This document shows positions 18,266-53,688 of a DNA stretch of 64,000 nucleotides, piece after piece. The notes beneath the pieces were generated by a model. That model was not told the DNA's origin. It was given only the letters and a program-made list of their open reading frames with translations, and searched no databases. The stretch's first letter is position 1. The number at the start of each line of letters is the position of its first letter. Position numbers and translations under genes: made by a program. The stretch comes from Octopus vulgaris (taxonomy: Eukaryota): assembly GCA_951406725.2 (NCBI GenBank), contig OX597824.1, forward strand, positions 16,616,001-16,680,000, given 5' to 3'.

Positions 18266-18451
18266 ATGAAGTAGAAAAAGAAGAAACAATGAAAAAAGAA
18301 GAAAAAAAAAACGATGAATATAATGAAACGAACGAACGAAACAAAGTGTTAGTAACGGGATGTGAAAAAGACAGAACTAAAATGGCTGCTAATATAAAGT
18401 AATGTGAAAACAAATTACAATCCCTTTGATGTAAAACAGTCGAAATATTGT

Positions 18452-18571
18452 AAAGTATAGAAGCCATCTTATCATGGCTAACCACATTGGGGAGGGGGTG
18501 TTACTGTAGCTTTATAGCCCCAAGAGATCTTCGTCTCAAGCTGGCTTGAGACACAATATCAGTGTCCTTGG
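18452..18571 (-). mobile_element. 5'-truncated retroposed copy of the element carrying the 40390 hammerhead, with 18-bp TSD
   Basis: TGGCTAACC..TACTGTAGCTT..TAGCCCCA.GAG..AGCTGGCT is shared with 40250-40340; flanked by AAAC(A/T)GTCGAAATATTGT at 18434-18451 and 18572-18589. Confidence 0.65.
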
Positions 18572-18957: not shown

Positions 18958-19180
18958 TTTTAATATTAAAACACCGATTTGAAAATCAGCACACATTTTC
19001 AACATTTTCTCTCATAAGACTGACTGAGGTAGTTGAATTTAACCCCAGGCGTTAAGAACCGCTGATGAGTATTAAGATGGTCTACAACAAAGTCCGAAAT
19101 CGCTATCCGGCTATGTACGCTGGGGACTTAACTCCCTTTGTCAGTCATTAATTTTGGTAATTTTGTGGTTTTTGAATTAT
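18958..19180 (+). mobile_element. Penelope-like element 3' end (ORF C-terminal remnant plus pLTR)
   Basis: KHRFENQHTFSTF resembles the KCRHENK..SNF end of PLE ORFs and is followed by a hammerhead motif. Confidence 0.5.
19059..19110 (+). ncRNA. Type I hammerhead ribozyme motif (intact core, eroded stem II)
   Basis: CCG-CTGATGA-G...AAAGTCC-GAAA-T-CGCT-ATC-CGG: stem I CCG/CGG, stem III AT/AT, AUC cleavage triplet. Confidence 0.6.
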
Positions 19181-39184: not shown

Positions 39185-40059
39185 TATGCGTTTTCCAGTG
39201 TATGTATTTGTGTGTGCGTCTGGATACCCACTCGCGCGTGCACACGTAGGGAGCGGTGTGTAGTTGGTTTATGTATAAGTGTGTCGGGGCGTGTACAAAA
39301 TATCTGTCAGCGAGTAAACCAAAAAACTCTACATGCACTCTTACGAACTAATGGAAATTAGAGACAATTCTCTTATACCTCGCTCACCGACTCACACAGA
39401 AGTGTTCCTAAGAGAGAATGAAATCTTTAAAATGCAGGAAGAACAGACGATCTCTGATGGAATGCATCTGGTTCTAAGTCTTCTCAGCAAGTGTTAATAT
39501 CGGATTAAGAACTCGGACAACAACCATGACTTGAGTTCTTTGACAGCTATCAAACAAAATGTCGCCTTGGATATTTACCTATTCCTTACTTTTTTCTTCA
39601 TTGATATCCCTATACATATCAGCTTCTCTTTTTTGCTCCGTTGATATGTTTTTTTAATTTCGTATTTATGAATTTGTTTTACAAAGATTGCTGATGTGAA
39701 ATCCTGTGTTAAAAAACAGATATTGTTACATATGGGCGATGATCATTCTGTTTCTTGCCAAACAGACTCACGCAATAATGATGATTGTTTTTCTTTGGCA
39801 AGAAAAGGAAAAACGTAACCATCCCTTTATAAAATAATACGTTCTTCCCTTTCCTCGTTGCTCCTTGACTTCACCTGTATCTGTGTATATTTGTACTTGT
39901 ATACTTACAGCTAGCAATATCTAACCATATGTCTATATATGCATATACATATATGTATATATATATGTATATATATATATATATATATATACGTATATAT
40001 ATAAATATGCATATATATATGTATATATATATAACTATATATATATGTATATATATATG

Positions 40060-40110
<51 letters not shown>

Positions 40111-40122
40111 TATATGTATATA

Positions 40123-40178
<56 letters not shown>

Positions 40179-40244
40179 CAATAATAAATCTCTGGGCGAG
40201 GTATAAATAGTAGCTGCACGACATCGTGTAGTATATTTGTTACT

Positions 40245-40545
40245 TAAATGTGGCTAACCCGTAAGGGTGGATGCTACTGTAGCTTGTAGCCCCAGGAGGA
40301 CAACTCCTCCAGCTGGCTATTCATACACTTTCTGTGCCCTATCAGTATTTGCAAAGGGAAGTCATTCTTCTCGTCTTCAACCTATGATACACGCGGACTC
40401 GAGTTTCTGGGTATTGACCCGTCATCAGCACGTGACAATCACAAGTTGTCGATGTAAAGTAGGCCTCTCTTTGCAAATATATTCCCTTTTTCCAGGGACA
40501 AAAAGTCACTGATATGGAAAAAGTGTAAACCACCAATAACAAATG
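40245..40545 (-). mobile_element. Hammerhead-bearing short retroelement (Penelope pLTR or retrozyme-like)
   Basis: Contains the canonical hammerhead below; its downstream part has a sibling with TSD at 18452-18571. Boundaries are approximate. Confidence 0.6.
40390..40434 (-). ncRNA. Type I hammerhead ribozyme, canonical core
   Basis: Minus strand: CACGUG-CUGAUGA-C-GGGU-caau-ACCC-A-GAAA-C-ucga-GUC-CGCGUG. It has a 6-bp stem I, 4-bp stem II, palindromic stem III (ACUCGAGU) and GUC cleavage triplet. Confidence 0.85.
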
Positions 40546-40559
40546 TCTGTTTTCCCTTT

Positions 40560-40620
40560 GCAGTGGGACTGAACCCGGAACCATGTGGCTTGTAAGCAAG
40601 CTACTTACCACACACCCACT
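40560..40620 (-). mobile_element. SINE family A head fragment
   Basis: GCAGTGGGACTGAACCCGGAACCATGTGG..AGCAAGCTACTTACCACAC. Confidence 0.8.
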
Positions 40621-41451
40621 GAATAAGTGCCACTGAACTTGCTTCAGAAATGTTTTCGTCTGCCTTTTGATAAGTCACATGACGAAGTACATCTATACCG
40701 AGTAATACTTTACTACCAGTTGTACAAAATCTCACCCTAGAAAGACCTATGCAGGATGAATCGAAACGATCGTAGGGACTGATAAAGTATAACGTGAATT
40801 CCAGTCTTTCTTTCTCTCTTTGTGTGTATAAATGTGTAAGTGTGTAAGTGTGAAGGGGAGTGTGTAGGGGAGGTGTGTGTGTGTGTTTGGGTATTCATAC
40901 GAAGGAAAATATGGATTGAATAAATCTAGTATAGTAATCACCGACAACATTGAAAAAACCCCACTTAGAATGAACGTGAATCGTCAACGATTTCATTTGC
41001 CACATGTGTTTTATATAGACTGACACGTGGCAAATTCAGACATATGTATCTAATCGATCGCTCAAGTGCTCGACTAAAATGCTATGAGAATGATAGGTAC
41101 CGATATTTTGCCATTAATGTATTTTATGAATACCAGGCACTCGAATTATCTCGAAAGGGAATGAAGCACTGGTCAGGGTCCTAAAAGCAAATACAGTTGT
41201 CGGTGATATATCTTCACACGCATACACATATATGTGTTCATATAACACACACACACGCACACACACATAAAATATAAATAGGGCAAAAATTTAGCCATTT
41301 CTCTACAGACTGACACAATGAAGAACATCCTTAATCGATTTTCGAAACTTATTGGGTTCTCATTTGAGGCGTCTACATCATTCTTAGAGATTCCACCCAG
41401 TACTGCTGCTGTATCTCTCCTTTAGATAGATTTAGAAATAATAACATTTAT

Positions 41452-41586
<135 letters not shown>

Positions 41587-42319: not shown

Positions 42320-42326
42320 ATATATT

Positions 42327-42545
42327 CAATATGTGACCGCGTGTGTACCGTTGCCGATTTTTTCTTCCTCCATCTTCCCTTCGTTGGACCTTTCCTTTTC
42401 CTATGATTCTGACGAAGATCTCCTCTCGAAACGTTAAATCCCACTTCTCTCTTTCTTTTCCTGAGCGTCCAATAACACTATACTTGTTCCACGTCCTCGC
42501 GCTGTTGTGTTTTCTCTTTGTGTTTTCGTGTTTGGATTAACTTTA
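42327..42545 (+). mobile_element. Short Penelope-like module between (TA)n tracts
   Basis: About 220 bp flanked by (TA)n on both sides; carries a hammerhead core. Confidence 0.6.
42405..42440 (+). ncRNA. Minimal type I hammerhead motif
   Basis: GAUU-CUGACGA-A-GAUCUCCUCUC-GAAA-CGUUA-AAUC; stem I GAUU/AAUC, palindrome AACGUU, weak stem II. Confidence 0.65.
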
Positions 42546-52860: not shown

Positions 52861-53688
52861 CAGGGTGCGGTGAATATACTGTCGTCTTGGCATCTTATTT
52901 TAACTGATATATTTACCAAAATTATATAAAGATATCTTGAAATACTAAAGAGTAAATTTACTCAATAAAATTACCATTGCTTTCAACTACAAACTCCAGA
53001 CGACTTCAGAATCTTCTACGACTCTTCTGGGCGGTCTCCTTGTTTAAGCTGGAGAATGCTTCCATAACCCTTGTCTTCAGTTCATCTTTGGTGTTACAAG
53101 AGGTTTTGCTGGTGTTTCGCTCTATTGTGCCCTACACATAATAATGATTGGGGTTGCAGTCTGGGAAGTTATGTGGTCAGTTGTTCGGATCATGTGGAGG
53201 AAGAAATTGTCTGACAACCCTGACCGGGTTCTTCTGCTCGTGTGGCATGGTGCAGAGTCTTGTTGCCAGACATGGTCTCTCAGCAGCTACACTGTTTGGC
53301 CAGTGCAGCCCTAACTCCACCAAGCGCTTGATGCAGGCCTCCGTGTTGAGTCTGAGTTTGTGTAAGATGAATGGAGGCATGACGTCGCCACTCCAAACAC
53401 CAAGATGTTGACTGGTTGTTTGATCTTTATCCCTCTCGGTGCATGTCTTCAGATTGGCACCCAAATACTCTGAAATATACGTATTTGAACTTCCGGCGGG
53501 AATGCCAAGCAGTACAGCATGTCGTTTCCAAATGTCTGTCGGAGTGAATTGCGTCATTGTGCTGTATTTCTCACTGACGGTGCCCAACTACCCCTACTAT
53601 ACTGTGTAGTCGAAAAAATCAAACACAAACAATGCACATGCGTAAAATTAAAAATAAAACATGGCGACAATTTACCCATCATACCATG
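52861..53688 (-). mobile_element. Tc1/mariner (maT/DD37D-like) transposon, internally deleted
   Basis: Degenerate TIRs CAGGGTGCGGTGAATATACTGTCGTC and GGCGACAATTTACCCATCATACCATG, flanked by TA. Confidence 0.8.
52958..53557 (-). pseudogene. Transposase pseudogene (maT-like)
   Basis: Reads MTQFTPTDIWKRHAVLLG.., GDVMPPF, WQQDSAPCHTSRRT, NFPDCNP.., YYV*GTIERNT and RLEFVVESNGNFIE*; only ~600 bp, so the middle is deleted. Confidence 0.85.

Follow-up and report, generated by a model that had tools for sequence, protein, structure and literature searches.

The locus analysed here raises the question of which enzyme moves animal retrozymes. Penelope-like elements (PLEs) were proposed earlier as retrozyme helpers in the accessible parts of three sources (PMC7229834; PMC7761336; 10.64898/2026.07.22.740005). 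In its available text, the 2020 review states that animal retrozymes show no helper-indicating motif (PMC7761336), and the available part of the 2026 preprint argues for PLE help from co-occurrence and pLTR similarity (10.64898/2026.07.22.740005). We analysed a hammerhead motif on the minus strand of a 64-kb stretch of octopus DNA (the window, to which all coordinates below refer unless a locus is named) and its relatives in the genome. We consider it probable that the motif marks a protein-free 354-nt non-LTR retrozyme with a conserved hammerhead fold, which likely spreads by means of a borrowed PLE enzyme.

The hammerhead motif and the window copy

Analysis of the minus strand from 40434 to 40390 revealed, in order, stem I, CUGAUGA, stem II, GAAA, stem III with the loop UCGA, UC, and the second arm of stem I (Table 1). 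As the sequence-only reading had described, the CUGAUGA/GAAA/GUC core is present with a palindromic stem III (ACUCGAGU at 40404-40397), and stem I (CACGUG/CGCGUG) pairs at six of six positions, including one U-G. The two helices said to extend it are also present: 40438-40448 pairs with 40378-40388 at 11 of 11 positions (two G-U), and 40464-40479 with 40346-40361 at 15 of 16 (one G-U and one A.C). With the CUGANGA, GAAA, and UH core, three helices, and an open stem I, the motif qualifies by its sequence as a type I hammerhead. The type I descriptor gave this single match in the 64 kb, any match in 1 of 200 block shuffles, and a match with a 6/6 stem I in 0 of 200. Another CUGAUGA...GAAA core at 19062-19099 on the plus strand, without a passing stem II, failed the type I descriptor.

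The motif had been called canonical, which holds for the core and the three helices but not for the base of stem II, where the C.A mismatch (40421/40408) makes it not fully canonical; this pair (10.1-11.1) is usually G-C in hammerheads. The Rfam hammerhead models gave no match at gathering score in the window and none at E up to 10 in 39500-41500. In the predicted ground state of the window rod, GAU pairs with GUC within the core in place of the active junction, and the C.A base together with this mispaired fold may result in slow cleavage. An axolotl motif with U.U at the stem II base is reported to cleave in the available text of PMC7229834.

The 134-nt rod has a folding energy of -46.7 kcal/mol (z -4.93), matched by 0 of 200 shuffles. 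The rod-like hairpin of ~135 nt reported earlier exists, but it forms only part of a 354-nt unit. The earlier count of four G-U pairs among five deviations from Watson-Crick pairing is correct; as a sign of RNA selection it is weak for the window copy alone, because the opposite strand folds almost equally well (-45.3, z -4.60). Only the window copy has the stem I U-G and the A.C; the remaining three G-U pairs agree with the subfamily majority.

Table 1. Features at the window locus; monomer position 1 is the first base past the predicted cut.
Feature	Position	Strand	Basis or remark
Whole insertion, 1.06 units of the ~354-nt monomer, subfamily A	40176..40549	-	345/374 bases equal the subfamily majority
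19-nt terminal redundancy	40531..40549, repeated at 40176-40194	-	
(TA)n tract joined to the 3' end, putative target site	39934..40176	.	
Predicted multibranch domain, 8-bp closing stem round short hairpins; contains end site 1	40207..40280	-	Single-sequence folds of A, B, C
Family 3'-end site 1 (monomer 171-174), putative reverse-transcription start; unused by the window copy	40222..40225	-	
Family 3'-end site 2 (monomer 216-220), putative reverse-transcription start; the window copy ends here	40176..40180	-	
Part of another, unrelated dispersed repeat, immediately 5' of the insertion	40560..40620	-	Matches in L001, L008, L020, L030 outside the monomer
Type I hammerhead	40390..40434	-	Descriptor match and covariation among copies
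Stem I arms	40434-40429 pairing 40395-40390	-	
CUGAUGA	40428-40422	-	
GAAA	40407-40404	-	
C17	40396	-	
Stem II GGGU/ACCC, loop CAAU	C.A base at 40421/40408	-	
Stem III, 2 bp	Predicted cut between 40396 and 40395	-	
Self-complementary helix III/loop 3, ACUCGAGU	40397..40404	-	Predicted pairing between two ribozymes (dimer cleavage)
Rod extending stem I (the hairpin of the sequence-only reading)	40346..40479	-	Fold, subfamily comparison, and covariation

Similarity among copies covers 40549-40176 and ceases at the (TA)n tract. The end of the monomer joins its own start, with the ~354-nt unit closing on itself, and the window copy spans monomer position 202 round to 220. Its 19-nt redundancy at both ends indicates that it slightly exceeds one round of the unit. 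The window copy is 92% identical to the subfamily A majority, while 36 aligned pieces average 95%. Since it contains a single ribozyme, one cut and no monomer release are predicted, and it is likely an ordinary, partly decayed, inert insertion and a dead end. We take the repeat fragment at 40560..40620 to be SINE-like. Elsewhere in the window, open frames at 1549-1920 and 53177-53587 (both minus strand) resemble transposase fragments, presumably mariner-like and DDE-like, respectively.

Family size and RNA structure across copies

Searching the genome with a 171-nt query gave 2381 first-look candidates, and the 40 that were scored showed 87-92% identity. Degenerate core patterns gave 781 and 1455 exact matches, with 0 for the reversed controls. 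Candidate loci number thousands and form at least seven subfamilies (the labels A-G, like PLE-1 to PLE-3 below, were coined in this analysis). Subfamily A, which includes the window copy, is older, and its sister B is young, with 443 exact young cores in the genome, 97-100% identity between units, and tandems of up to 5.11 units. A, D, E, F, and G have C.A at the base of stem II, C has U.U or A-U there, and G-C occurs only in B. Family G is separate: its period is about 350, it matches A and B locally at ~69-72%, and its first-look candidates number 2688. A fragment of a more distant member of the retrozyme superfamily lies in the window at 18447-18568 (minus strand), with 69-71% identity to A and B, and covers the region before site 1.

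A tandem arrangement, raised as a check by the sequence-only reading, was found: 17 distinct units, measured from cut to cut, are 351-354 nt long, each contains a ribozyme, and no ORF separates them. The units of the family measure 350-355 nt with a GC content of 0.41-0.45, and the longest Met-ORF in four references is 38-46 aa. Tandems, short ORFs, covarying stems, and the lack of a recurrent neighbouring ORF agree with the earlier proposal of a non-coding, hammerhead-bearing, retrozyme-like family. DNA-sized sequencing runs under three organism codes contain more than half of the sampled words of one A copy. None of the listed runs is recorded as RNA, and aligning four runs to an A dimer and four to a B trimer yielded no molecule ends. 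Three contigs of presumed RNA origin cross the predicted B cut without difference, only X7 with at least 31 letters on each side; such contigs cannot show ends or strand, and these results carry no weight either way on expression, cleavage, or circles. Most D/E copies covering the 5' arm of the rod (L133-L143, L149) have ATTTGCAT where A has ATTTGCAA; we take ATTTGCAT to be an octamer motif, which on its sequence is a possible promoter element.

Comparison of 26 copies spanning A-F over 50 pairs revealed covariation, with double changes in 17 of the 50 pairs versus a shuffled mean of 11.7 (3/500), under controls that keep relatedness in and for a structure drawn from the same sequences. Double-change cells numbered 80 versus a shuffled mean of 31.8 (0/500), and the slid controls reached at most 7 pairs and 16 cells; further pair types in the 26 copies showed no excess over shuffles (413/500). 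Both stem I and stem II show covariation. The loop 3 tetraloop is self-complementary in 26 of 26 copies, being UCGA, CCGG, UGCA, or UCGG in most A-F copies, and both of its pairs change on both sides; in family G it is CUAG or CAUG (ACUAGU/ACAUGU), also self-complementary. Loop 3 is the clearest single signal of structure conservation and fits the dimer cleavage of metazoan type I hammerheads described in the accessible text of PMC4209133. None of the catalytic core positions varies among the 26 aligned copies, a result that is partly circular because the copies were largely found by core patterns.

In circular folds, all four references are highly self-paired (z -3.8 to -8.8 against 40 shuffles per reference), and in each of them the ribozyme strand exceeds the opposite strand in stability. 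Among the distinct pair types of the seven subfamily majorities, G-U occurs 14 times and A-C 7 times. RNAalifold did not recover the active hammerhead junction, the core being mispaired as in the single folds, nor did it recover the closing stem of the start-site domain at 40207..40280, so that this domain rests on single-sequence folds.

Insertion ends and the Penelope-like elements of the genome

Among 176 outer 3' ends in 130 insertions, 91 lie at site 1 (160-178 from the predicted cut), 61 at site 2 (205-232), and 24 elsewhere, giving 152 of 176 on-site, with lengths and end positions biased by the choice of loci that hold the ribozyme region. The two sites are about 43 nt apart, and in subfamily B the ends are sharp, at 171-174 and 216-221. 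Head-to-head insertions account for 47 of the 130, and 32 of these 47 have one end at each site; the remainder comprise 14 with at least one off-site end, one classed as site 2 twice, and none as site 1 twice. The insertion classed as site 2 twice is L121, which was otherwise mapped as 174/217. Two loci, L092 and L097, have common breakpoints and may be one event. In 40 B loci, which overlap the 130-insertion set, the two arms use different sites, one each, in 20 of 24 head-to-head insertions. The position of site 1 is kept in family G despite the differing sequence at the site.

The ends lie within 20 nt of (TA)n in 31 of 33 cases for B and 13 of 13 for C, and in 50 of 102 for the older A-like copies and 4 of 28 for G. 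Insertions exceeding one unit (16 of 21 in B, 17 of 75 among A-like) run into the previous monomer. The units and both arms within one insertion mostly carry one common variant set, as expected from repeated reading of one RNA, and a tandem transcript of such an insertion would give the same picture. In L121, both arms share a unit-specific pattern, in which 333C>G is absent two units from the end and present in the next; a monomeric circle does not explain this pattern, suggesting that the template may have been multimeric. The accessible text of PMC8557442 lists as PLE traits partial tandems, an inverted arm, and a tail of 30-40 bp on one end, and the available part of PMC11167929 traces the tail to initiation at two internal sites and regards it as unique to PLEs. 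The retrozyme insertions carry this two-site PLE tail signature.

The genome contains at least two young, intact, autonomous PLE families, PLE-1 and PLE-2, with many copies 97-100% identical and both ending in (TA)n. A 781-aa frame is open in all 16 of the PLE-1 copies selected for it, with a GIY-YIG domain above the cut-off and RVT_1 just below it. PLE-2 encodes 775 aa with a period of 4270, and its protein is 47% identical to that of PLE-1. One end per arm was seen in 12 of 12 head-to-head PLE-2 insertions with both ends in view, where an internal (AT)n blurs the second site and gives an end spacing of 26-46 nt; PLE-1 in L158 has an extension of ~40 nt on one arm only. The distance from the cut to site 1 is 174 nt in the retrozyme versus 143 nt in PLE-2. 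Hammerhead-like motifs in these two families are degenerate (UUGAUAA...GAAACAUGUU in PLE-1, CCGAAGA...GAAAGUACUA in PLE-2), with the palindromic loop 3 kept (L157, L158, L205, and other G000 loci). The 3' UTR of PLE-1 (L067:1950-2450 region) contains several GATTGG...TGATGACGTC repeats followed by TATAAAA, which we take to resemble a CCAAT/CRE/TATA promoter.

PLE-3 is older, has (TA)n at two of the four ends inspected, and ends in its own, different minimal hammerhead. A PLE-3 3' end lies in the window at 42324-42482 (plus strand, 85% to L227), about 1.8 kb from the retrozyme copy, with a minimal hammerhead CUGACGA...GAAACGUU starting at 42409. Two retrozyme copies, one A and one G, are fused directly and in the same orientation to PLE-3 mid-ORF fragments (L013:1039-1385 and L220 near 2445, minus strand); these may be template switches, and two cases prove nothing. 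A microhomology at the L013 fusion vanished once PLE-3 copies were aligned. Four further loci considered as PLE-linked copies proved to be neighbours or nested insertions (L127, L254, L275, and, short of a base-level reading, L266).

The monomer had no DNA match at E up to 1e-3 to the PLE-1, PLE-2, and PLE-3 units, nor to the first 1.5 kb behind other GIY-YIG matches. The helper is therefore suggested by the footprint alone, with no specific PLE named. Around the start sites, the retrozyme had no evident fold in common with either PLE-1 or PLE-2.

Mode of spread and relation to known systems

Because the insertions end at paired sites of the PLE type, the family likely spreads when a PLE enzyme copies its self-cut and probably circular RNA. 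Tandem loci would be transcribed, neighbouring hammerheads would pair via the palindromic loop 3 and cut after GUC, and a host ligase would close the monomer into a circle. A PLE RT/GIY-YIG protein would nick (TA)n DNA and start copying at the two internal sites, +171/174 and +216-220, and copying would run round the template for 0.2 to 5 units to produce single or head-to-head insertions; for the window copy, copying would have begun at site 2 and ended 1.06 units later. Circle closure by host ligase is published for the coral, mussel, and axolotl retrozymes in the available text of PMC7229834, and by analogy with the circles known from these animals, a circle would be favoured here.

Cleavage itself is not needed for PLE insertion according to the accessible part of PMC11167929, and one of nine frog dimers tested was cleaved in the available part of the preprint (10.64898/2026.07.22.740005). 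The same family with a PLE helper could instead use as template a linear tandem transcript that stays uncleaved, or else a multimeric circle, the hammerhead being attenuated and dispensable for jumping. This arrangement would account for the L121 arms, the C.A stem II base of A, D, E, F, and G and the U.U of C, and the mispaired predicted ground state, and the accessible text of PMC11167929 gives unprocessed RNA as the main substrate of a PLE. We judge it unlikely, given that the core is invariant in 26 of 26 copies (partly circular, owing to core-pattern sampling), that loop 3 complementarity is kept through double changes, and that the youngest subfamily has a G-C stem II base; moreover, tandems need an origin, for which rolling-circle copying is the simplest. 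The monomer could also be the pLTR, at the 3' end, of an autonomous PLE outside the sample, its copies being 5'-truncated ends. The ends, inversions, and targets are indeed PLE-like, and in the part of the preprint available, Repbase elements, almost always PLEs, are matched by 24 of the 57 retrozyme families of frogs (10.64898/2026.07.22.740005). However, copies that exceed one unit continue into the preceding monomer with no ORF, a single pair among 54 upstream flanks has a common junction sequence, and PLE-3 ends in a hammerhead of its own. PLE protein matches occur in 6 of 164 family loci (some overlapping), all with different junctions; the direct fusions to older PLE ORF fragments in L013 and L220, which favour the pLTR origin, are both mid-ORF. 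No ORF with RT plus GIY-YIG recurs between the repeats in the 164 family loci, where units directly adjoin. Among the 123 PLE loci, no parent of the monomer was found, and the monomer occurs there only as a separate neighbour or in those two fusions. The sequence-only reading had noted that its novelty would vanish if the copies were simply the pLTR of an autonomous PLE, which was not found among the PLE families sampled; with about 150 of several thousand loci read, we consider such an origin very unlikely.

Movement by a LINE or at the DNA level (as a SINE, MITE, or satellite), with the hairpin a DNA palindrome and the hammerhead incidental, would suit the two strands of the window copy, which fold about equally well. 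It is at odds with insertions that lack poly(A), a single constant 3' end, and terminal inverted repeats of the unit, and that show two internal ends, one per arm, as in PLEs. The excess of G-U over A-C pairs (14 versus 7) and the more stable ribozyme strand in four of four circular folds also speak against it, and we regard this alternative as barely credible and already largely refuted. On a broader proposal we are evenly divided: animal retrozymes would be viroid-like circles that hijack PLE enzymes by mimicking the shape, not the sequence, of the two-site start, and this genome would hold a still-active parasite-helper pair alongside graded older subfamilies. If true, this would name the long-suspected mobiliser from a DNA footprint. 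The two-site signature is biochemically tied to PLE reverse transcription, and its positions stay fixed between families that differ by about 30%. In one genome, a very young retrozyme subfamily occurs beside two intact PLE families that are likewise very young, which provides defined RNA positions for an existing in vitro assay.

By its sequence features (a non-coding unit within 150-450 nt, GC below 50%, a type I hammerhead, and tandems), the octopus family is a non-LTR retrozyme, an animal class already known, including in a mollusc. The alignments showed no noticeable LTR, primer-binding site, or polypurine tract. As far as the accessible text of PMC7229834 goes, it resembles the metazoan non-LTR retrozymes of coral, Mytilus, and axolotl (Rtz_353/HHR_Amex2) in its non-coding 350-355-nt units with 40-45% GC, a type I hammerhead with a 2-bp helix III and a tetraloop, a highly paired predicted circle, and the presence of monomers, tandems, and PLEs in the same genome. 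The weak helix II base is U.U in HHR_Amex2, and C.A, U.U, A-U, or G-C here. Unlike those retrozymes, the octopus arrays are short dispersed insertions of up to 5.1 units, and the available part of that report does not mention two fixed internal 3' ends, head-to-head arms, or (TA)n targets. Circular RNA and cleavage are shown there and predicted for the octopus family.

The family shares with EN+ PLEs and their pLTRs, as described in the accessible texts of PMC8557442, PMC11167929, and PMC4209133, the partial tandems, an inverted 5'-truncated arm, a tail of 30-46 nt confined to one end, targets that are AT-rich or (TA)n, and a type I hammerhead upstream of the ends. In contrast to EN+ PLEs, the octopus unit has no ORF and closes on itself; its hammerhead has a stem I prolonged into a rod, those of the sampled PLEs being minimal or degenerate. 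The octopus unit has no DNA similarity to the sampled PLE units of the same genome. The Xenopus retrozymes from PLE pLTRs are likewise non-autonomous hammerhead repeats beside PLEs with many monomers, but the PLE link consists of pLTR similarity and co-occurrence in Xenopus, in the part of the preprint available (10.64898/2026.07.22.740005), and of an integration footprint with no parent pLTR found in the octopus.

In the main texts of the open-access literature, we found no prior description of the octopus family or of a two-site footprint in retrozymes. The class itself is known, and the insertion footprint is the new part, with useful evidence on how retrozymes move. For another cephalopod, the giant squid genome, the available text of PMC6962438 lists 235 Rfam hammerhead loci. 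Among the octopus loci sampled, L064 (minus strand, near 690), L123, L124, and L125 contain hammerhead-like motifs ending in GAAACUCGAGU with no match to the monomer, one of them with a long stem II; these motifs likely represent further families.
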